Shown here one piece after another: positions 2 through 8,995 of a DNA stretch of 64,000 bases (position 1 is the first letter of the stretch; the number at the start of each line of letters is the position of its first letter). The stretch lies in the NCBI GenBank assembly GCA_012729095.1, contig JAAYDU010000027.1, forward strand, positions 1,238-65,237, read 5' to 3'. Origin of the DNA: Methanobacteriota archaeon. GTDB taxonomy: Archaea; Thermoplasmatota; Thermoplasmata; Methanomassiliicoccales; UBA472. Position numbers and translations under genes: made by a program. The notes beneath the pieces are model-generated. The model was not told where the DNA came from and did not search any database. It saw nothing but the letters and a program-made list of their open reading frames with translations.

Positions 2-286
2 GGTTACGTGGGGGGCCTGCACTACACCCATTTCTCGGGCGTGGAGCACGAGGGCGGCAATGAACGGAGGGTAACCCCGATCAAGAAGGGAGACCTGCGC
101 TTCGAGCCCATGGCCGAGTATTTGGCCGACGCCAACCTGAACGCTACGATCATATCCAGCTCGCCACTGCTGGAGCACGATGCCATGTACATGAAGGTCA
201 TCTACGAGAGGGTGATGACCAAGCGGGTGTCCAAGGACATCAAGGTCAAGAAGGGCAAGGGCGCCAAGGACGATGATGAGGAGTGA
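2..286 (+). CDS. C-terminal part of a xylose-isomerase-like TIM-barrel / AP-endonuclease-2 family protein (5' end outside window)
   Basis: The frame is open to the left edge. The tail HYTHFSGVEHEGGNERRVTPIKKGDLRFEPMAEYL resembles the C-terminal metal-binding strands of endonuclease-IV-like TIM barrels. The TGA stop at 284-286 overlaps the GTG start of the next gene (GTGA). Confidence 0.4.
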   Translation, partial: GYVGGLHYTHFSGVEHEGGNERRVTPIKKGDLRFEPMAEYLADANLNATIISSSPLLEHDAMYMKVIYERVMTKRVSKDIKVKKGKGAKDDDEE

Positions 287-822
287 AGGAGACCACGGCC
301 TACGTTCTTGAGGAGGTCAGGCGAACCATCGAGCGGGTGGACGAGTCCATCATCGATGAGATCGTCGAGATACTTGCCTCCGCTCCTAAGATATTCATTT
401 ACGGCGTCGGGCGCTCTGGCCTGGTGGGCGAGGCCCTGGCGGCCCGCCTGGTACAGCTGGGACTTAACGTTCACTTCGTGGGAGACACGACCACCCCCAT
501 CGTGGAGAGGTCGCATGTCGTGCTCATATTCTCCAACACCGGGGAGACCATGTCAGCGGTGCAGACCGCCAACATCGTTCGCCGGCTGGGAGCCGTCGTG
601 ATCAGCATAACAGGCAGTGCCCATTCCAAGCTGGGCATAGCCAGCAACATCGTCCTGGAGCTAGTGCAGCCCAGGGACGAGCGTAAGAAGAAGAACGCCC
701 CCCTGGGAACCATCTTCGAGCTGTCCAGCATGGTGATGATGGATTCCATGGTTCCGTTGCTCATGGCCAGGCTGGACCAGGACGAGGCCTCGCTTCGCCG
801 CCGGCACGCCATATGGGTATGA
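283..822 (+). CDS. SIS-domain sugar-phosphate isomerase, probably 6-phospho-3-hexuloisomerase (RuMP pathway)
   Basis: 179 aa. The string IFIYGVGRSGLVGEALAARLVQLG...LIFSNTGET...ISITG is the SIS phosphosugar-binding pattern, and the size is typical of PHI. GTG start coupled to the upstream gene. Confidence 0.7.
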   Translation: MKETTAYVLEEVRRTIERVDESIIDEIVEILASAPKIFIYGVGRSGLVGEALAARLVQLGLNVHFVGDTTTPIVERSHVVLIFSNTGETMSAVQTANIVRRLGAVVISITGSAHSKLGIASNIVLELVQPRDERKKKNAPLGTIFELSSMVMMDSMVPLLMARLDQDEASLRRRHAIWV

Positions 823-1401
823 TCACATCCTGATCTTCTTGGGCCGCACGCTCTCCCCATAATAGGGGTTCTGGAACTCGTCCCAATAGACCAGGAACTT
901 TCGGCGGAGGACCTCGCCGTCCGAGAGGCAGAAGGCGTCCATCTCCTTTCGCACGGGGTCCACCACCAAAGCGGTGTGGTATGGCCGGTCGAACATGCCC
1001 TTCTGAGTGGAGATGTCCGTGGAGGAGAGGAAGCAGCCGTGCCCGGGATGGGAGTGATACCATCCGACCAGCACGTAGCGGAACCTGGCGCACTCCAGGG
1101 AGGCGAACAGCGCCTCAAAGCCTTCCGGATCGAACCTAACGCTGACCGAGGTCGCCTCCAGATCGGTGGTGGCCACATCTCGCACCACGGTGTACTCCAC
1201 GCCCTGGTGGGTGAACACCTCACCGAGAAGGAAGCCCATGACCTCCAGGCCTTCCTTCACCTTGGAGAGGGCGTGATTGCGCACCTTCTCCTCGGCGGTC
1301 TTGAACAGGTACATCTCCGCCTTCTTGCCGGAATACATCGGCAAGGCCTCCTTGGGGAGCCATTTATGAGGCAGCGTCCTCTCCTGGGCCGGAGGGGACA
1401 T
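823..1401 (-). CDS. Rpn11/CSN5-like JAMM (MPN+) metalloisopeptidase of the ubiquitin-like cassette
   Basis: Carries EVMGFLLG (catalytic Glu) and VGWYHSHPGHGCFLSSTDISTQ, i.e. E...HxHx7Sx2D. The start is taken at the ATG at 1401 (MSPPAQ...), preceded by GGAGGTGGAGGAG. The longer track ORF to 1629 overlaps the E2 gene out of frame. Confidence 0.85.
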   Translation of the reverse strand: MSPPAQERTLPHKWLPKEALPMYSGKKAEMYLFKTAEEKVRNHALSKVKEGLEVMGFLLGEVFTHQGVEYTVVRDVATTDLEATSVSVRFDPEGFEALFASLECARFRYVLVGWYHSHPGHGCFLSSTDISTQKGMFDRPYHTALVVDPVRKEMDAFCLSDGEVLRRKFLVYWDEFQNPYYGESVRPKKIRM

Positions 1402-1445: not shown

Positions 1446-1952
1446 TCAATGTTTCACCACCTTCGGGGCGGGGACCACGATCAGGGGAGGCATTCTCCTG
1501 GGGGAGGAATTGAAGTACTGGGCAGCGGCGGTGCAGGTGTCGGTACCGAACGGGCTGCTGCCGTTCGGGGATATGAGTAGGGATTCCAGCCCCTTGATGA
1601 ATGTGGACAGCGTGGAATTGAAGGACCATTCCGAAAGCAGCTTGATGCAGACATGCCCCCCGTCCTCTGGCATCATGATATTGGGATGGAATATAGGCGT
1701 CCTCCAGATCACCAGCGGCTTTTCGAACGGGTACTCCCGGCCGATGATCAGCTCCATCCTGTGGCTGTAACGATAGGATATGTTCCCGTTCTCCATTACC
1801 GGACCAGGGGTGCCTTCCAGGGATATCTCCACCTTGAGAGGGAACCTCGTCAGATGCTCTTCGCTGTGATCGAAGTCGGGAGGGAGGTTGTGACGGCAGG
1901 CCTCCAACTCGTTCCTCAACCTGATTAGAAGTATCTCCAGGGGCAGGGTCAT
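1446..1952 (-). CDS. UBC-fold ubiquitin-conjugating enzyme (E2)
   Basis: 168 aa. REYPFEKPLVIWRTPIFHPNIMMPEDGGHVCIKLLSEWSFNSTLSTFIKGLESLLISPNGSSP matches the UBC core (YPF.xP.V.F.T.I.HPNI...G.IC...L..W......LL..PN...P). HPN is at residues 89-91 and the candidate catalytic Cys is residue 102. The start overlaps the Ubl stop (ATGA). Confidence 0.85.
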   Translation of the reverse strand: MTLPLEILLIRLRNELEACRHNLPPDFDHSEEHLTRFPLKVEISLEGTPGPVMENGNISYRYSHRMELIIGREYPFEKPLVIWRTPIFHPNIMMPEDGGHVCIKLLSEWSFNSTLSTFIKGLESLLISPNGSSPFGTDTCTAAAQYFNSSPRRMPPLIVVPAPKVVKH

Positions 1953-2194
1953 ATCTTCCCGCCCTCAGGGTCGGGTATCAGCTCCAGCTCCTCGTTCGAC
2001 TGTATGTCCAGTTCCTGCACCTTTTGCTGCCCCCTCAGCAAGCGCCGGCCCTTGCGTATGACATAAGCCCCTGGGTCCTTCTCCCAATAGGCCGAAACGC
2101 CCTCGATTATCTCCTCCACGGTGTTCTCCATCTCCAGTTCCATGTCGACCGTGGCCCCGGTCTCTGCGTTCCTGACCCTTACCCTTACCACCAT
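1949..2194 (-). CDS. Ubiquitin-like beta-grasp modifier precursor (C-terminus ...EGG-KI)
   Basis: 81 aa. The pattern MVVRVRVRN / ATVDMELE / helix NTVEEIIEGVSAYW / AYVIRKG / ELELIP fits a beta-grasp. A di-glycine at residues 78-79 is followed by two extra residues. It sits between the E1 and E2 genes. Confidence 0.75.
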   Translation of the reverse strand: MVVRVRVRNAETGATVDMELEMENTVEEIIEGVSAYWEKDPGAYVIRKGRRLLRGQQKVQELDIQSNEELELIPDPEGGKI

Positions 2195-2261: not shown

Positions 2262-3086
2262 TCAGACAGCGGGATGGTTGGGGCACCCCTGATCTATGTC
2301 CAGGGACAGTATGTCACTGGTCCCCGCCAGGCCGTCGTAGTGCATGACATGCTCCATGACCGGACGATGGGAAACGATCTTAACGGCCTCCCGCACCTGC
2401 ACCGCGGCTATGATGCTGGTCGTCGTTATCTCGGCGGCCATCTTCGGCCGGTAGAAGACGGTGTCCTGGCCGGTGCAGCTGAACCGGCGTTCCATGACCT
2501 TGAAGTGGCTGCGGTTCATACCGCATTGAAGGCAGGGGGTCAGAGGGGGCATCACCACCTGCACCCTTCCCCGGAACCCGTCGGTGCCCCCGTCCACGTA
2601 CGGCACTCCGGCGTGATAGGAATTGGCGTTCAGATGAAGCCTCGCCGCCACGTTGTCCAGGCACCCCAGTATCAGGTCGTAGCCCTGCATCTCAACAGGC
2701 CCCAAGGATTGAACCCTTTCCTCGATGGCCTGGACCTCCGCCTCCGGATACAGGTCCCGCGCCCTTTCCGCCACCAGCGAGGCCTTGCCCCTCCCGGACC
2801 GCTGGTCCCCCTCCCGGAACAGCACGCAGCGGTTGAGGTTGGAACGCACTACCGTGTCCATGTCAAGAACGTCCACTTTCCGGAAGCCGAACAGCATCAG
2901 GTCCTTGACCGCCTCGTTCCCCAGCGCTCCGGCGCCGACCACGAGGACCCGGGCCCTCTGCACGCCCTCCATGTCCACCCAGGAGATACGCCTGGTCCGG
3001 TCGTGGCGGTCATCGTCCCTTTCCCCCGGGCGTATGGATTGGGGCATGGGAAACGGACCGCGCCCTGAGTATAAAACGAACGACAT
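2262..3086 (-). CDS. ThiF/MoeB/UBA-family ubiquitin-like activating enzyme (E1), adenylation domain only
   Basis: Carries the Rossmann loop VLVVGAGALGNE, LDMDTVVRSNLNR, CLDNVAARL, PYVDGGTDGFRGRVQVVMP and CLQC...FSCTG...CPNH. An alternative start is the ATG at 3047, which lies about 26 nt downstream of a TTTTATA element (see 3068-3078) and would give a leaderless mRNA. Confidence 0.85.
   Translation of the reverse strand: MSFVLYSGRGPFPMPQSIRPGERDDDRHDRTRRISWVDMEGVQRARVLVVGAGALGNEAVKDLMLFGFRKVDVLDMDTVVRSNLNRCVLFREGDQRSGRGKASLVAERARDLYPEAEVQAIEERVQSLGPVEMQGYDLILGCLDNVAARLHLNANSYHAGVPYVDGGTDGFRGRVQVVMPPLTPCLQCGMNRSHFKVMERRFSCTGQDTVFYRPKMAAEITTTSIIAAVQVREAVKIVSHRPVMEHVMHYDGLAGTSDILSLDIDQGCPNHPAV
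3068..3078 (-). promoter_or_regulatory. Putative TATA box for the E1 operon
   Basis: The minus strand reads cgTTTTATActc. The spacing to the ATG at 3047 is about 26 nt, as expected for an archaeal leaderless transcript. It lies in the divergent region shared with ppk. Confidence 0.3.
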
Positions 3087-3172: not shown

Positions 3173-5299
3173 ATGCCAGCCCGAAGGAGCAGCGCAGACC
3201 AGAGGAAAGGTGTTCGTGAACGGAGCTCAGTGAAGCGGCCCGCGGACACGCCCTTCATCAACCGGGAGATCAGTTGGATCAGGTTCCACCAGCGCATACT
3301 TGAGGAGGCGCAATGCACCGACCACCCCCTCTTGGAAAGGGTCAAGTTCCTGGCCATATGCGGCAGCAACCTGGACGAGTTCTTCATGGTGAGGGTGTCC
3401 GGCCTCAAGAGGCAGCTGAAGAAAGGTGCCTTGGAGACCCCGCCGGACGGCCTGACCCCCCTGGAGCAGATGGAGGTCGTCAACGAAGAGCTGCTGCCAC
3501 TGCTAGAGGCCCACGGCAAGCTGTGGTACGAGGACCTCCTGCCCAAGCTGGAAGCGGCGGGGATCACCATACATCGCGTGAAGGACCTGGACACGGGCAG
3601 GCGCCAGGGATTGCGCGATTACTTCGAGAGGATGATATTTCCAGCGCTCACGCCCTTGGCCCTGGACTTCAATCAGCCATTCCCGTTCATTTCCAATCTC
3701 AGCATAAACCTGGCGGTCAGCGTGAGACACCCCCAGCGAGGGGACCGCTATGCCCGGGTGAAGGTGCCCCTGGACCTGTTTCCCCGCTTCGTCCCCCTTC
3801 CGGGGAGCTCTCCGGGAAGGAAGCAGGAGTTCGTCCTGCTGGAGGACCTGGTGGCCGACAACCTGGACCTCCTGTTCCCTGGAATGAAGGTCAGGTACTC
3901 GCACATGTTCCGCATCACCCGAGACGCGGACATCGAGATAACCACCGATGAGGCGGAGGACCTGCTGACGGCCATAGAGGAGAGCGTGGAGACCAGGAGG
4001 ATAGGCTCGCCGATCCGCCTGGAGGTGGGCAAGGACATGCCGGACAAGCTCGTGGACCTTTTCGCCACCAAGCTTGGATTGCATCAGCTCATGGTTTTCC
4101 GTTCCCACGCCCCGCTGTCCATGGTCAGCTTCTGGGACCTTCTGTCGCTGCACCGCCCGGACCTCAAGGACCCGCCCTTCCTTCCGTTCGTCCCTGCGGA
4201 CCTGATGCCGGAGAAGTCCCTCATGACCGCGGTGGAGCATCGTGACAGGCTTTTCTATCACCCCTACGACAGCTTCGTGCCCCTGGTGAACTTCCTGAAG
4301 CAGGCGGCCAACGACCCGCAGGTACTGGCCATCAAGATCACTCTTTATCGCATAGACAAGCATTCCCCGGTCATCGACGCCCTCATGGAGGCGAGGGAGA
4401 ACGGCAAGGCGGTGGCCGCGGTGGTCGAGCTGAAGGCGCGCTTCGACGAGGAGAACAACATAGTATGGGCTAGGGCGTTGGAGAACGCCGGGGTGCACGT
4501 GGTGTACGGGCTGATGGACCTCAAGGTGCACGCCAAGCTGCTGCTGGTCGTTCGGAAGATGGGGGACAGGATAGTCCGCTACAGCCACATGAGCTCGGGG
4601 AACTACAACGCCCAGACATCCCGCATCTACGGCGACATAGGTTACCTCACGGCCGACCAGGACATAGGGGCTGACGTGGCCGACCTGTTCAATTTTTTGA
4701 CAGGCTATTCGTACAAGGACTCCTACCGGAAGCTGCTGGTCGCCCCGGTGACCCTGAAGGACGAGATGATCGCCAAGATAGACCGGGAGACCGCCCGGCA
4801 CCTGGAGCATGGAGATGGATACATAGCGTTCAAGCTGAACGGGCTTCTTGACCCGGACGTGATACAGGCGCTGTACCGGGCGTCCCAGGCGGGCGTTCGC
4901 GTGGACCTGAACGTGCGCGGCCTCTGCGCCCTGCGACCCGGCGTCAAGGGGCTGAGCGAGAACATCCGTGTGAACAGCATAGTCGGGCGCTTCCTGGAGC
5001 ACGCCCGCATCTACTATTTCCGAAACGGCGGGGAGGAGGAGGTGCTGCTGGGGAGCTCGGACATGATGCCCCGCAACCTGAAGAGAAGGGTGGAGGTGCT
5101 CTTCCCCGTCCTGGACGAGGGATACCGCCGCATGCTCGTGGACAGGATACTTCCCATCCACCTCATGGACAACACCAAGTCCAGGGACATGCTGCCCAAC
5201 GGGACCTATGTCATGAGGAAGAGGGGAAAAGGAGAGGAGAAGGTGGACTCCCAAGAATGGCTGATAGGGAACCGTGGTTACTGGCACGGGGAGGAGTAG
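3173..5299 (+). CDS. ppk: Polyphosphate kinase 1
   Basis: 708 aa. N-terminal FINREISWIRFHQRILEEA. The autophosphorylation-site context is LKVHAKLLLVVR. The C-terminal PLD-like repeats contain GRFLEHARIYYF. TAG stop. Confidence 0.9.
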   Translation: MPARRSSADQRKGVRERSSVKRPADTPFINREISWIRFHQRILEEAQCTDHPLLERVKFLAICGSNLDEFFMVRVSGLKRQLKKGALETPPDGLTPLEQMEVVNEELLPLLEAHGKLWYEDLLPKLEAAGITIHRVKDLDTGRRQGLRDYFERMIFPALTPLALDFNQPFPFISNLSINLAVSVRHPQRGDRYARVKVPLDLFPRFVPLPGSSPGRKQEFVLLEDLVADNLDLLFPGMKVRYSHMFRITRDADIEITTDEAEDLLTAIEESVETRRIGSPIRLEVGKDMPDKLVDLFATKLGLHQLMVFRSHAPLSMVSFWDLLSLHRPDLKDPPFLPFVPADLMPEKSLMTAVEHRDRLFYHPYDSFVPLVNFLKQAANDPQVLAIKITLYRIDKHSPVIDALMEARENGKAVAAVVELKARFDEENNIVWARALENAGVHVVYGLMDLKVHAKLLLVVRKMGDRIVRYSHMSSGNYNAQTSRIYGDIGYLTADQDIGADVADLFNFLTGYSYKDSYRKLLVAPVTLKDEMIAKIDRETARHLEHGDGYIAFKLNGLLDPDVIQALYRASQAGVRVDLNVRGLCALRPGVKGLSENIRVNSIVGRFLEHARIYYFRNGGEEEVLLGSSDMMPRNLKRRVEVLFPVLDEGYRRMLVDRILPIHLMDNTKSRDMLPNGTYVMRKRGKGEEKVDSQEWLIGNRGYWHGEE

Positions 5300-5304
5300 G
5301 GGCC

Positions 5305-7449
5305 ATGGAGGAACTGTGCGCATACGGGAGGACCATCATCGCCCAAAGGCTGGAGGCCCTCCTGGCCGAGGTCGACGGGGTGCGCAGGGGGGAAGACATC
5401 GAGTGCGTGCATCGCATGCGAGTGGCCTCCCGGCGTCTGCGATCGGCGCTTCGCCTGTTCGGGGATTGCTTCAAAGGGAAGAAGGCCAGGAGATGGCGGA
5501 AGGCGGTCAGGGAGGTCACCTCCTCGCTGGGAGAGGCGCGCGACCTGGACGTGCAGATCGATCTGCTCGGTAGCATCTCTGAGGACTGGGAGGGGGAGGA
5601 GGCGGTAGGACTCGCCCTCATCATGGAGATGCTGAAGTGCAGGAGGGCTTCCCTGCAACCGGGCGTAATCACGATGATGGACGCCATCGTCGCGGATGAC
5701 GCGTTCCAGGAGATGGGGTCCGATATCTCCGCGGTGAAGGAGATGGGAAAGGACCTGTCATCGCTGCACCCTTACGCTTTCGCCCATGCCGCGGTCGCGG
5801 TCGAGGAGATGATGGAGCACTCCCACTCCGTTCCCGTTTACGAGGACTGGCCGGGACATCACGCCCTGCGCATAGCGGGGAAGCATCTCCGCTATGCCCT
5901 GGAGGCCTTCCGGGAGGCCTATCCCGACAGGCTCAACGACGAGCTCAAGGTCCTCAAGGGACTGCAGGACGTGGTGGGAGAACTGCACGATTGCGACGTC
6001 TGGTTGCAGCGCTTGCCCGGACTGAGGGAGGAGGCCCCCCTGGCCATTGCGGCCATCGATCGCCTCCAATCGGTGTTCGAGGCTCGCCGGAGGGAGCTGC
6101 ACGTAAAGCTCGTGGAGCGCTGGTACTGTCTGATGCAAGAACGCTTCATGTACAGGCTATTGGACAAGCTGAAGGGGCGCCGGTCGGTGGAGACATGCCC
6201 GGTGAAGGTAGCCCTTATCTCCGACGTGCACGGGAACGCTTCAGCCCTCAAGGCGGTGATGGAAAGCGCCCGAAGCAGAGGTGCCACCGCCTTCCTGAAC
6301 GCCGGGGACTCGGTGGGCCTCCCAAGACCCGTGGAGTCCCTGCAGATGCTGAGGGAGCGGGACGTGCTAAGCGTCATCGGCAACATAGACCGGGCCGCGC
6401 TCAGGGCCGCCGCTGGAAAGAAGGTGCGGGACCGGCAGCTGGAGATGGCGGCGCAATCGATGGGGAAGGAGGACCTTGAATGGCTAGGCTCGTTGCCCGA
6501 GGAGCTGCGCCTGGACATATGCGGGCTGACCGTGCTGGTCACCCACGCCTCCCCCGGACAGGAGGCGGAGAAGCTTACCGTGCACACGCCCGATGCCCGG
6601 CTGCGCTTCCTGGCCGGAGAGAGCGGGGCGGACATAATCATCACCGGGCATTCCCATGCCCCCATGGCAAGGGATTGCGTCGGGACCCTTTTCATAAACC
6701 CGGGAAGCGTGGGGCGACCGCGCGAGGGGCCCGAGGCATCCTACGCCCTGTTGGACCTTCCTGCCCTGCGCGTCGAGCTGCTGAGGGTGGCATACGACTT
6801 TGAAGGCGTTGCCGGTGAGCTCCGGGCCCAGGGGTTCAAGGACCTGCCCAGGGAGCTGGAGGAAGGACGGACCAGGGACAAGGTGTTGGAGGCGGGAGCG
6901 TGGGCGGAACCGTTGCACGGTGACCGCCGGCACGCGGACCAGGTGAGGACCCTGGCCGCGCTCATCTTTGACGGTACCCGGGGATCGCATCGCCTGGACC
7001 CCAAGGACCGCGAGCTGCTTGAGATGGCGGCCATGGTGCATGACGTGGGTTTCGGAGAGGGCGCTGAAGGGCATCAGAGAAGGGCTCTGGACATCGTGAT
7101 GAAGACGGATATGGATCTCGACGAGGTCGAGCGGAGAATGCTGGCCTGCGTGGCCCGCTATCACGGCCTGCGCTCCCCGCGGCGGGGAGACCGGGTGTTC
7201 AAGGAACTGACCGAGTCGGAGCGGGAGAGGGTGGTCAAGCTATCGGCGATCCTGGCCCTGGCGGACGGCCTGGACCGAGGACATGCCTCCCTGGTCGGAG
7301 GCCTGGATGTGTCCATCGGGAAGGGTTCCGTGAACATCGTCATACAAGGCCAGGGAGACCTTTCCCTGGAGAGGGAGTGGGGGGCTCGCAAGGGACAGCG
7401 CCTCGCCAAAGCCCTCGACCGGGAGGTGATCGTCGTTGACCGAGAATGA
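5305..7449 (+). CDS. Fusion protein: CHAD domain + calcineurin-like metallophosphoesterase + Ppx/GppA C-terminal HD-like domain
   Basis: CHAD signatures: VHRMRVASRRLRSALRLF, LGEARDLDV, HALRIAGKHLRYALEAF. Metallophosphoesterase motifs: ISDVHG, AGDSVG, GNID, VTHA, GHSH. The C-terminal ~175 aa are paralogous to the C-terminus of the neighbouring Ppx (HADQV...AAMVHDVG...ARYH...LADGLDRGH). The ATG at 5305 follows GGGGAGGAG. The track ORF start at 5257 would overlap ppk. Confidence 0.8.
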   Translation: MEELCAYGRTIIAQRLEALLAEVDGVRRGEDIECVHRMRVASRRLRSALRLFGDCFKGKKARRWRKAVREVTSSLGEARDLDVQIDLLGSISEDWEGEEAVGLALIMEMLKCRRASLQPGVITMMDAIVADDAFQEMGSDISAVKEMGKDLSSLHPYAFAHAAVAVEEMMEHSHSVPVYEDWPGHHALRIAGKHLRYALEAFREAYPDRLNDELKVLKGLQDVVGELHDCDVWLQRLPGLREEAPLAIAAIDRLQSVFEARRRELHVKLVERWYCLMQERFMYRLLDKLKGRRSVETCPVKVALISDVHGNASALKAVMESARSRGATAFLNAGDSVGLPRPVESLQMLRERDVLSVIGNIDRAALRAAAGKKVRDRQLEMAAQSMGKEDLEWLGSLPEELRLDICGLTVLVTHASPGQEAEKLTVHTPDARLRFLAGESGADIIITGHSHAPMARDCVGTLFINPGSVGRPREGPEASYALLDLPALRVELLRVAYDFEGVAGELRAQGFKDLPRELEEGRTRDKVLEAGAWAEPLHGDRRHADQVRTLAALIFDGTRGSHRLDPKDRELLEMAAMVHDVGFGEGAEGHQRRALDIVMKTDMDLDEVERRMLACVARYHGLRSPRRGDRVFKELTESERERVVKLSAILALADGLDRGHASLVGGLDVSIGKGSVNIVIQGQGDLSLEREWGARKGQRLAKALDREVIVVDRE

Positions 7450-8995
7450 GAGGGGAAAGGTGGTGGCATTCCTGGACGTCGGCACGAACTCCGTGCGGCT
7501 GCTGGTGGTGCGCATTAACCCCAACCGTTCCTACACCATCATCAGCGAGCAGAAGGAGATGGTGAGGCTCGGCGAGCAGGAGTTCCGGAGCGGGGTCCTG
7601 CTGGAGAGCGCGATGGAAAGGTCGGTCAGGGTCCTGAAGAACTTCTGCGACCTTTCCCGGACCTACGGCGTGACCGAGTTCGTGGCCATGGCCACCTCGG
7701 CCACCAGGGAGGCCTCGAACCGAGCCGAGCTGGTCGATCGCGTGAAGGAGGCCACCGGGCTGGAGCTGCAGGTCATCTCGGGCAAGGAGGAGGCCAGGCT
7801 GATATACATGGGCGTTTCCACCGGCCATCACATCGGCCGCAAGAAGGCCATGTTCCTGGACATAGGAGGGGGGAGCACCGAGCTGGCCCTGGGCGACCAG
7901 AGCGAGCATTCATATCTGGAGAGCCTCAAGGTGGGGGCCGTCCGCCTAACCACCATGTTCGTGAAGAAGCCGGACGCGCCTGTACCGGATGCCGTGCTGG
8001 CCAAGATGCGCAAGTACGTGAAGAGCTCCCTGGTGCGGGCCAGAAAGGAAGTGCTGCAGGGCAAGGTATCCCTGGCCTTCGGCAGTTCCGGGACCATAGT
8101 TAACCTGGGCGAGATCCTGATGCGCCATGACAGCAGCTCGCACCCGGGCGTGATCAGGTACTCCCAGCTGAAGAAGCTGGTCCCGTACCTGGCCGGAATG
8201 GACCTGGCGGCCAGGCGCAAGGTGCAGGGCATGAACCCGGACAGGGCCGACATAATCGTGGCCGGGGCGATCATACTGGAAACGGCGATGGACGAGCTTA
8301 GGCTCAGCGAGATAGCCGTTAGCCAGCGTAGCATGAGGGACGGCATGCTCCAGGATTACCTGGGCGGCCTGGAGGAGTTCCCGGGCTTCCGGGAGCTTTC
8401 CGTGCGGGAAAGGAGCGTCATACAGCTGGGGCGCGCCTGCTCCATAGACGAGGAGCATGCCAGGCGGGTTACGGCCATCGCCCTGGAGCTGTTCGACAGC
8501 GCTGCCAAGAAGGGATTGCACACCATGGGAAAGAAGGAGAGGGAGATACTGCAGCACGCGGCCTTCCTGCATGACGTCGGCGATTTCATCTCCTTCAACG
8601 ACCATCACCTACACTCGCACTACATCATATGCCACGCCGAGCTGCTGGGGTTCTCCAACAGGGAGGTGCTGCTCATGGCCAACGTGGCAAAGCACCATCG
8701 GAAGCGAGCGCCGAAGCTCGGGGCGGTCGACCTGCGCGAACTGGACGCCAAGGACCAGCAGGCGCTCGTGCGCCTCTCCACGCTGCTTCGCATGGCGGAG
8801 AGCCTGGACCGCTCGCATTCCAACCTGGTGCAGAACGTTCGCTTCAGCAAGGTGACCAAGCGCGCGGTGAAGCTCATAGTCACCGCCAGCGGGGACCCTC
8901 AACTGGAGATGTGGCGCATGGAGGAGGACCGCAAGGCGTTCAAAAAAGCCTATGGAAGGGACCTTACGGTGGTTCTTAACAACATCGATGGATGA
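7436..8995 (+). CDS. ppx: Exopolyphosphatase (Ppx/GppA family)
   Basis: Carries VAFLDVGTNSVRLLV and LDIGGGSTELAL (actin-like ATPase phosphate loops) and a C-terminal HD-like domain (AAFLHDVGDFIS...HHLHSHY). The TTG start at 7436 overlaps the previous gene by 14 nt. A GTG at 7460 is an alternative start. Confidence 0.85.
   Translation: MTENERGKVVAFLDVGTNSVRLLVVRINPNRSYTIISEQKEMVRLGEQEFRSGVLLESAMERSVRVLKNFCDLSRTYGVTEFVAMATSATREASNRAELVDRVKEATGLELQVISGKEEARLIYMGVSTGHHIGRKKAMFLDIGGGSTELALGDQSEHSYLESLKVGAVRLTTMFVKKPDAPVPDAVLAKMRKYVKSSLVRARKEVLQGKVSLAFGSSGTIVNLGEILMRHDSSSHPGVIRYSQLKKLVPYLAGMDLAARRKVQGMNPDRADIIVAGAIILETAMDELRLSEIAVSQRSMRDGMLQDYLGGLEEFPGFRELSVRERSVIQLGRACSIDEEHARRVTAIALELFDSAAKKGLHTMGKKEREILQHAAFLHDVGDFISFNDHHLHSHYIICHAELLGFSNREVLLMANVAKHHRKRAPKLGAVDLRELDAKDQQALVRLSTLLRMAESLDRSHSNLVQNVRFSKVTKRAVKLIVTASGDPQLEMWRMEEDRKAFKKAYGRDLTVVLNNIDG

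Follow-up and report, generated by a model that had tools for sequence, protein, structure and literature searches.

An E1-like protein with a single adenylation domain heads a conserved four-gene ubiquitin-type cassette in Methanomassiliicoccales

We analyzed an E1-like gene in a 64,000-nucleotide stretch of contig JAAYDU010000027.1 from a Methanomassiliicoccales archaeon (this whole 64 kb stretch is hereafter called the window) and found that its product consists of a single adenylation domain, without a ubiquitin-fold domain (UFD), an inserted catalytic-Cys domain, or an inactive adenylation domain (IAD). In canonical ubiquitin-activating enzymes (E1s), the C-terminal UFD recruits the conjugating enzyme (E2), and the thioester Cys resides in an inserted domain. 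The gene is the first of a co-oriented cluster that encodes E1, a ubiquitin-like modifier (Ubl), an E2, and a JAB protease, in this order and all on the (-) strand (Table 1). We consider it reasonably probable that these genes form a stripped-down, eukaryote-like, ubiquitin-type conjugation cassette, whose minimal E1 would adenylate Ubl, carry it as a thioester on Cys204, and hand it over to a directly docked E2.

A single adenylation domain without UFD or catalytic-Cys domain

The E1 product assigns readily to a known superfamily. Pfam ThiF (PF00899) covers residues 37-262 with E = 1.4e-46 and 159 bits, far beyond chance given a cut-off of 28.1, and it was the sole Pfam family in the protein, a match to AlaDh_PNT_C on the same Rossmann segment staying below threshold. 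Together with Foldseek probabilities of 1.00 to MoeB, ThiF, and UBA3, this places the protein in the ThiF/MoeB/E1 adenylation-domain superfamily. Upon searching the sequences of the Protein Data Bank (PDB) with phmmer, we obtained the best matches with UBA2, the catalytic subunit of the SUMO E1 (3.6e-26; 38% identity by Foldseek), and with UBA3 of the NEDD8 E1 (1.7e-25), followed by weaker ones with MoeB (3.6e-15), ThiF (6e-15), UBA5 (7e-10), and SAE1 (1e-7). Residue numbers throughout follow M1 of the open reading frame (ORF) of 274 amino acids (aa), although M14 is the probable start. Because homologues begin at the position matching M14 (MPQSIRPGERDDDRHDR) in an alignment of 25 of them, the product is probably 261 aa long, starting at 3047 and spanning 2262..3047. 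Of the 262-274 aa proposed in the original prediction, the upper value matches the ORF, while the lower one comes to 261 rather than 262.

Conservation was followed through three alignments, namely 25 close homologues at 52-84% identity (A1), relatives at 35-49% identity (A2), and 63 sequences of long forms of ~400 aa (A3). The nearest homologues come from metagenome-assembled genomes of Methanomassiliicoccales at up to 84% identity, and one shorter gene call is 100% identical. The adenylation motifs, all of which the original prediction had listed as present, were confirmed and are invariant in homologues: the P-loop residues G51/G53/G56, D75/D77, N83/R86, K101, and D144 do not vary in A1, and neither does the N-terminal arginine motif D26-R27..R30, while in A2, G51/G53/G56, D75, N83, K101, and D144 are still invariant and R86 is nearly so.

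Each of these PDB alignments was interrupted just past a CxxC pair and picked up again at the helix AEITTTSIIAAVQVRE. At this break, E1 residues 190 -> 218 correspond to UBA2 163 -> 386, and E1 residues 191 -> 218 to UBA3 196 -> 283. The coordinates therefore indicate that the canonical E1s hold 222 (UBA2) or 86 (UBA3) residues, the catalytic-Cys domain, where the window protein has 26; in the E1 of Caldiarchaeum, the same gap between CxxC and the next core helix amounts to ~65 residues. An AlphaFold2 monomer model built on the 25-sequence alignment, with a predicted local distance difference test score (pLDDT) of 80.8 and a predicted template modeling (TM) score (pTM) of 0.80, likewise showed one domain, whose last strands lie at 247-251 and 256-260 and whose sole internal low-confidence stretch is 201-216, around Cys204. 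By Foldseek, this model superposed on essentially the entire chain of MoeB (target-normalized TM score, TMt, 0.82) and ThiF (TMt 0.84), with values of 0.82-0.85 over the two, whereas it covered just the adenylation part of UBA3. The model contains no UFD-like C-terminal fold, and the protein ends 3 residues past H271.

The orthologues end in the same manner. A scan with one genome per species returned at least 573 related stretches, and all locus counts given here refer to the best 80 of them. In 80/80 of these loci from species-representative genomes, the E1 ORF ends at most 237 aa after the P-loop, showing that the missing UFD is not an accident of assembly. As three independent lines, the Pfam and PDB alignments, the AlphaFold model, and the ORF ends thus agree with the original prediction of an adenylation domain alone, and the structure-prediction check that it had proposed for a UFD-like fold returned a single MoeB/ThiF-sized domain. 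We separately considered a hidden UFD or a split gene, and rejected it: the stop codon is followed by 67 nucleotides (nt) and then by the Ubl gene, the 80/80 orthologue ends agree, and AlphaFold2 predicted no extra fold.

Cys204, a predicted zinc knot, and the proposed route of transfer

Cys204 lies in the crossover segment, 16 residues past the CxxC pair. The cysteine positions given in the original prediction, C185/C188 (in PCLQCG), C204 (in RRFSCTGQD), and C268-P-N-H271, proved exact in the ORF translation, and the placement of Cys204 on the crossover loop was borne out by its location in the 26-aa segment and by its invariance in the family and in the relatives at 35-49% identity. Indeed, none of C185, C188, Cys204 (S-C-T-G), C268, and H271 varies in A1 or in relatives with as little as 35% identity; in the long forms of A3, the three N-terminal cysteines remain invariant and the C..H pair nearly so. 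Two further cysteines, C87 and C142, occur in the protein. The C-T dipeptide at Cys204 equals that at the catalytic Cys of eukaryotic UBA3 orthologues (alignment in Suppl. Fig. 2 of PMC5654768). By analogy and from its conservation, Cys204 is the candidate thioester site.

A different role for this residue would follow if the enzyme performed adenylation only, such that Cys102 of the E2 attacks the adenylate directly and Cys204 is structural, regulatory, or redox-sensing, a scheme that we consider improbable. MoeB does work without a covalent intermediate (PMC1779556), the Bub systems show divergent chemistry at the E1 step (PMC11601596), and the loop with Cys204 is, with 26 aa, very short and poorly modeled. 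Yet, Cys204 stays invariant down to 35% identity in an otherwise variable loop, it shares both the segment and the C-T dipeptide with the catalytic Cys of the UBA3 orthologues, and all known E1s except BubCD have a conserved Cys that lies in the crossover loop or in an insertion into it (PMC11601596).

The remaining conserved cysteines point to a structural metal site. C185-x2-C188 aligns with C-Y-E-C at UBA2 chain residues 158-161 and with C-I-E-C at UBA3 chain residues 192-195, and CxxC pairs at those positions are Zn ligands in the SUMO and NEDD8 E1s and in BilD (PMC10557695). C185/C188 and C268/H271, including the unusual His, are invariant in the sequences of A1 and A2, and these four residues are the predicted ligands of a Zn knot.

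In the mechanism that we favor, the JAB protease would remove the two residues past the PDPEGG end of Ubl, a JAB-type trimming of a Ubl precursor that has been demonstrated for Caldiarchaeum Rpn11 and BilC (PMC5654768; PMC10557695). E1 would bind ATP and Ubl and adenylate the terminal Gly of the latter. A homodimer is its most likely working form, given that all active-site motifs and the N-terminal DRxxR arginine motif are present and there is no inactive partner domain, and the MoeB/ThiF-like fold of the model is consistent with such an assembly. Cys204, on its short flexible crossover loop, would then attack the adenylate to yield E1~Ubl, in an arrangement like that of Cys250 in UBA5 and at a position like that of the catalytic Cys, likewise followed by Thr, with which the Cys domain of eukaryotic UBA3 orthologues begins. 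The E2 (HPN, Cys102) would dock on the adenylation domain beside the C185/C188/C268/H271 Zn knot, as on BilD, possibly with the help of its own conserved basic-hydrophobic tail, and would take over Ubl by transthioesterification; the direct contact with helix 1 of the E2 put forward in the original prediction is one possible form of this docking. In 62 loci, a neighboring co-oriented gene for an HPN-Cys E2 is conserved, whose product would be the E2 charged by E1. The E2 would subsequently modify lysines of its targets, possibly without a dedicated ligase (E3), as no RING gene belongs to the cassette, in contrast to the clusters of Caldiarchaeum and of the P0145 type described below, and the JAB protease would reverse the modification.

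The proposed catalytic and recruitment steps are plausible and in line with precedents. Four points weigh against this mechanism. The crossover loop was modeled at low confidence (pLDDT < 50 at residues 201-216), so that we can only assume that Cys204 reaches the active site. The fourth predicted Zn ligand is a His instead of a Cys. In ~16 mostly marine Thermoplasmatota loci, the E1 gene has no Ubl, E2, or JAB gene beside it; there, the partner genes are unlinked or else the enzyme serves a different purpose. Finally, the analysis covered a 64 kb window, and an E3 may be encoded elsewhere in the genome.

The same 64 kb scope bears on a further alternative, to which we give little credence, namely that E1 is not self-sufficient but relies on an unlinked inactive adenylation-like subunit or an E2-recruiting adaptor, and is minimal in cis alone. 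The SUMO and NEDD8 E1s are heterodimers whose partner comes from a separate gene, and the window E1 matches the SAE1 subunit, although weakly (1e-7). The window itself contained neither a second E1-like ORF nor a partner IAD subunit, E1 has lost neither the N-terminal arginine motif nor any of the active-site residues, as is also the case in the homodimeric MoeB and ThiF, and the cassette is compact, with just four genes in ~60 loci.

Cassette partners, distribution, and genomic neighborhood

Ubl matched ubiquitin weakly among solved structures, and two residues beyond its GG would need to be trimmed; across the cassettes, the C-termini PDP[EQT]GG are conserved, with an exact GG end in 34/62 and 1-9 extra residues in the remainder. 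The start of the E2 gene overlaps the stop of the Ubl gene by 4 nt, and HPN followed by Cys is present in 62/62 cassette E2s. Among solved structures, the JAB protein matched Rpn11 (2.8e-16), CSN5 (1e-13), and the Rpn11-like protein of Caldiarchaeum (4.9e-11), and it is the predicted Ubl-processing and deconjugating enzyme of the cassette.

The E2 further carries, past its UBC core, a short basic-hydrophobic C-terminal tail PAPKVVKH (window 1446..1490, (-)). The motif occurs within the last 16 residues of 27/63 E2s, against a mean of 0.4 in shuffled sequences, with ~13 more in the RIRIVG form, and its variants PKVV, PRVV, PKILG, and RIRIVG recur from Methanomassiliicoccales to Micrarchaeota. 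Speculatively, the tail may serve as a peptide through which the E2 docks on E1 or on the proteasome/Cdc48 machinery.

This set of partners bears on the question of whether the protein is instead a sulfur-carrier or dual-function activator of the MoeB/ThiF/UbaA-SAMP/Urm1 type, which would make a Ubl thiocarboxylate for cofactor or tRNA thiolation and use Cys204 like the acyl-persulfide site Cys184 of ThiF. We think this doubtful at best. The protein has the size of MoeB and ThiF and their fold over the whole chain, archaeal UbaA is active in sulfur transfer as well as in conjugation, and some marine relatives without adjacent E2 and JAB genes keep such a role alive at a low level. However, E1 is nearer to UBA2/UBA3 than to MoeB in sequence and has no rhodanese domain; its gene is tightly linked to those of a canonical HPN-Cys E2 and an Rpn11-like deubiquitylase (DUB), not to MoaD/ThiS, rhodanese, or cofactor genes; and Ubl is like ubiquitin rather than MoaD or ThiS. 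The NCBIfam scores moreover fell far under the equivalog cut-offs for ThiF (110 vs 275), MoeB (94 vs 449 and 73 vs 377), and UbaA (74 vs 450), and on these we rejected membership in the MoeB, ThiF, or UbaA families.

The best 80 loci lie in Methanomassiliicoccales, in other Thermoplasmatota (including Candidatus Sysuiplasma), and in Micrarchaeota, and Ubl, E2, and JAB genes accompany E1 in 60-62/80 of them. In most Thermoplasmatota, the order E1-Ubl-E2-JAB is kept, usually followed by a convergent SIS-domain gene (48 loci), while in Micrarchaeota, the cassette genes lie within a few kb of one another in a looser arrangement. The identity of E1 falls with taxonomic distance while local synteny is kept, a pattern that agrees better with vertical descent of a housekeeping system than with a mobile defense island. 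The flanks of the cassette in the window are also of a housekeeping kind, comprising genes for polyphosphate kinase PPK1, a CHAD-phosphoesterase fusion, a putative Ppx/GppA, SIS, phosphoglucomutase (PGM), NAD kinase, phosphoenolpyruvate (PEP) synthase, and Kae1. An antiviral conjugation system of the Bil/Bub/CBASS-Cap2 kind on a defense island is accordingly very improbable in our view: although the PADLOC E1-E2 and BilD models match the adenylation core (1.6e-15 to 1e-5) and the gene content is as in BilABCD (E1, E2, Ubl, JAB), these matches span just the Rossmann core of much longer models (for the BilD model, 1.1e-5 over 113 residues), Ubl and E2 had no PADLOC match, the E2 motif is the canonical HPN rather than CEHH, E1 is without the IAD and CYS domains of BilD, the neighbors (PPK, PGM, NAD kinase, PEP synthase, Kae1) are housekeeping genes, synteny with the SIS gene is kept in 48/80 loci, and the identity pattern is the one expected from vertical inheritance; we thus rejected the defense reading on the partial PADLOC matches to the E1 core and on the housekeeping neighborhood.

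Several side observations concern individual loci. The loci with a lone E1 (L021, L022, L024, L032, L034, L039-L042, L045, L053, L055, L062, and L067) belong mostly to marine or uncultured Thermoplasmatota; they keep SCTG and CxxH intact, with no Ubl, E2, or JAB gene in flanks of up to 5 kb (some contigs being shorter). In L042, the neighbors of E1 are genes for membrane proteins, a PHP-like phosphoesterase, and an endonuclease III-like protein. Five contigs with E1-Ubl-E2-JAB-SIS (L054, L060, L063, L070, and L071) are filed under bacterial bins of one gut study, assigned to Anaerovoracaceae, Eggerthellaceae, Bacteroides salyersiae, and Acutalibacteraceae, and are most likely mis-binned Methanomethylophilaceae. 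In the window, a polyphosphate module (3173..8995, (+)) lies divergent from the E1 gene. A second, stand-alone JAB gene, distinct from that of the cassette, may encode a SAMP-type desampylase.

Table 1. Coordinates of the cassette, of the E1 features, and of neighboring genes in the window
Feature	Coordinates	Strand	Evidence or remark
E1-like gene, one ThiF/E1 adenylation domain, 274-aa ORF	2262..3086	(-)	PF00899 1.4e-46, PDB matches, AlphaFold2 model, homologue N-termini
ATP-binding P-loop G51-A-G-A-L-G56	2919..2936	(-)	Invariant in A1 and A2
C185-x2-C188, first half of predicted structural Zn site, start of crossover loop	2523..2534	(-)	Invariant in A1 and A2
Crossover segment of 26 aa (residues 192-217), where canonical E1s hold the inserted catalytic-Cys domain	2436..2513	(-)	PDB alignments, pLDDT
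Cys204 (R-x-S-C-T-G), predicted thioester-forming catalytic Cys	2475..2477	(-)	Invariant in A1, A2, and A3; Cys there in 80/80 loci
C268-x2-H271, second half of predicted Zn site, 3 residues before protein end	2274..2285	(-)	Invariant in A1 and A2
Ubl, 81 aa, end ...PDPEGG-KI	1949..2194	(-)	Pfam ubiquitin 0.0028; ubiquitin matches
E2 (UBC fold), 168 aa, HPN at 89-91, catalytic Cys102	1446..1952	(-)	Pfam UQ_con 1.6e-14; eukaryotic E2s ~1e-9
Rpn11-like JAB/MPN metalloprotease, JAMM motif HSHPGHGCFLSSTD	823..1401	(-)	JAB PF01398 1.2e-13
SIS-domain gene, 179 aa, convergent with JAB gene	283..822	(+)	Adjoins or lies within ~1.3 kb of cassette in 48/80 loci across Thermoplasmatota
PPK1	3173..5299	(+)	Neighbor kept just in closest relatives (L001-L004)
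730-aa fusion of CHAD, metallophosphoesterase, and Ppx-GppA domain III/HD	5257..7449	(+)	
519-aa ORF, putative Ppx/GppA-like	7436..8995	(+)	Judged from its sequence
Second, stand-alone prokaryotic-type JAB gene, 148 aa	12093..12536	(-)	PF14464 7.2e-11

Standing among known E1 systems

Relatives outside the window family show how this E1 lineage varies at its C-terminus. Searching representatives exhaustively, we obtained short relatives of 253-270 aa at 40-49% identity and a large set of proteins of 380-420 aa at 35-42% identity, which align unbroken over E1 residues 24-271 and then run on for ~130 residues, indicating that the window family is the version of the lineage without the C-terminal domain. 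The inserted Cys domain is missing from both the short window family and the ~400-aa relatives. One of the latter, P0145, lies in a locus (L081 3712..8441) with genes for Ubl, E1, a JAB protein of 507 aa, an unassigned product, a Prok-RING_1 protein, a UQ_con E2, and an FHA protein. Its C-terminal 125 residues were predicted at pLDDT > 94 as a β-rich fold that has a single long helix and in which a CxxC..CxxC Zn ribbon is embedded. In the Foldseek alignment with UBA3, which spans the entire chain, the query-normalized TM score (TMq) stayed at ~0.5 without a rise; in the model, this domain, at most a possible UFD homologue, is placed where a UFD would sit.

A literature search returned no paper on the Thermoplasmatota/Micrarchaeota cassette or its E1, with Supplementary Fig. 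1 of PMC5654768 outside its coverage; the sole related mention found was that of an Rpn11-like MPN protein in M. luminyensis (Fort et al. 2015). The protein is thus apparently an undescribed archaeal variant of an already known kind of minimal E1. If the favored mechanism holds, the cassette would constitute a four-protein ubiquitin-type cascade whose ~260-aa E1 is nearer in sequence to the SUMO and NEDD8 E1s than to MoeB, and would therefore be convenient for addressing UFD-free hand-off and the origin of E1 domains. It raises the questions of how, with neither a UFD nor a mobile Cys domain, an E1 passes Ubl on to a canonical E2, and in which order Cys domain and UFD were acquired in evolution. 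Thermoplasmatota and Micrarchaeota, with methanogen lineages that live in association with hosts among them, would then join Aigarchaeota and Asgard archaea as groups with eukaryote-like ubiquitylation, and the cassette does occur in cultivable, human-gut-associated methanogens. A bolder proposal, which we put forward tentatively and regard as rather unlikely, is that the cassette is a vertically inherited, housekeeping, E3-independent system of Thermoplasmatota and Micrarchaeota, whose E1 keeps, or converged on, the ancestral state of eukaryote-type E1s before the Cys domain and UFD. In that case, E2 recruitment would proceed via the Zn-knotted adenylation domain and possibly the E2 tail, reciprocal to the UBA5-UFC1 mode, and the system would be the smallest complete ubiquitin-type E1-E2 cascade.

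Among the closest known systems is the Cluster I E1 of Caldiarchaeum subterraneum (CSUB_C1476), which is 35% identical to the window E1 in a BLASTP alignment over residues 27-188 only (pairwise E = 2e-28) and belongs to a ubiquitin cascade that has been functionally reconstituted (PMC5654768). Both proteins have an archaeal eukaryote-like adenylation domain with CxxC and then a crossover Cys, and both cassettes encode a Ubl whose C-terminus has to be trimmed, an HPN E2 (30% identical), and an Rpn11-like JAB protein. The Caldiarchaeum sequence continues from CxxC through ASEC(184), ~65 inserted residues, PKMPALQS, and a second CxxC to a ubiquitin-like (UBL) domain at the C-terminus (PMC5654768 Suppl. 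Fig. 2). In the comparison with other archaeal cassettes that the original prediction had called for, the two differ: the Caldiarchaeum E1 has the insertion after the catalytic Cys, a CxxC as second Zn pair, a UBL/UFD, and a RING E3 in its operon, whereas the window E1 has none of these and a His as its fourth ligand. The ~380-420-aa E1s of prokaryotic Ubl-E1-JAB-(Prok-RING)-E2 clusters (e.g., P0145 of L081) are the nearest full-length sequence relatives outside the family, at 35-42% identity, yet these have the extra ~125-aa C-terminal domain and a Prok-RING neighbor, both of which the window family lacks.

The architecture of the window E1, a single adenylation domain with an invariant Cys204 as predicted nucleophile in a 26-aa crossover segment, is that of a minimal E1, without the two hallmarks, Cys domain and UFD, of canonical E1s such as UBA1, UBA2, UBA3, and those of Caldiarchaeum Cluster I. 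While this part of the minimal-E1 framing is supported, it is not unprecedented, as E1s without a UFD and Cys domain are already known in UBA5, Cap2, and BubCD, and one without a UFD in BilD (PMC11601596, PMC10557695). Hennell James et al. (2017) also noted the absence of a C-terminal UBL from the archaeal "Cluster III" E1s and from the bacterial proteins related to them (PMC5654768), so that an archaeal E1 without a UFD is not new in principle.

UBA5, the E1 of UFM1, likewise combines a single adenylation domain and a crossover-loop Cys (predicted in our case) with the absence of a Cys domain and UFD (PMC11601596), and its fold matched the entire chain of the window E1 (6h78, TMq ~0.70). Unlike UBA5, however, the window E1 is paired with a canonical HPN UBC rather than a UFC1-like E2, and the sequence similarity of the two is weak (7e-10). 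UBA5 moreover recruits UFC1 and UFM1 via C-terminal peptide motifs, which the window E1 does not have, its chain stopping at the predicted Zn site. BilD serves its E2 without a UFD by binding it on the active adenylation domain (AAD) via a Zn-rigidified C-terminal segment (PMC10557695), and its Zn site is composed of the crossover CxxC and a C-terminal pair, as predicted for the window E1, but BilD comprises IAD, AAD, and an 80-aa CYS domain. BubCD, Cap2, and UBA5 form homodimers, and in each of them the crossover loop bears the nucleophile (PMC11601596). The bacterial operons of BilD, Cap2, and BubCD also hold JAB and Ubl genes, yet these are sporadic defense systems with non-canonical E2s, unlike the window cassette; Cap2 is an E2-E1 fusion and BubCD a JAB-E1 fusion, of which the Bub system uses oxyesters, whereas the window E1 is a separate single domain. 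MoeB and ThiF have size, whole-chain fold, and a CxxC followed by a crossover-loop Cys in common with the window E1 but act in sulfur-carrier pathways without an E2 or DUB. Overall, the window E1 groups by its predicted mode of action with the minimal non-canonical E1s UBA5, the E1 domain of Cap2, and BubCD, and by sequence with the eukaryote-like, Caldiarchaeum-like branch.

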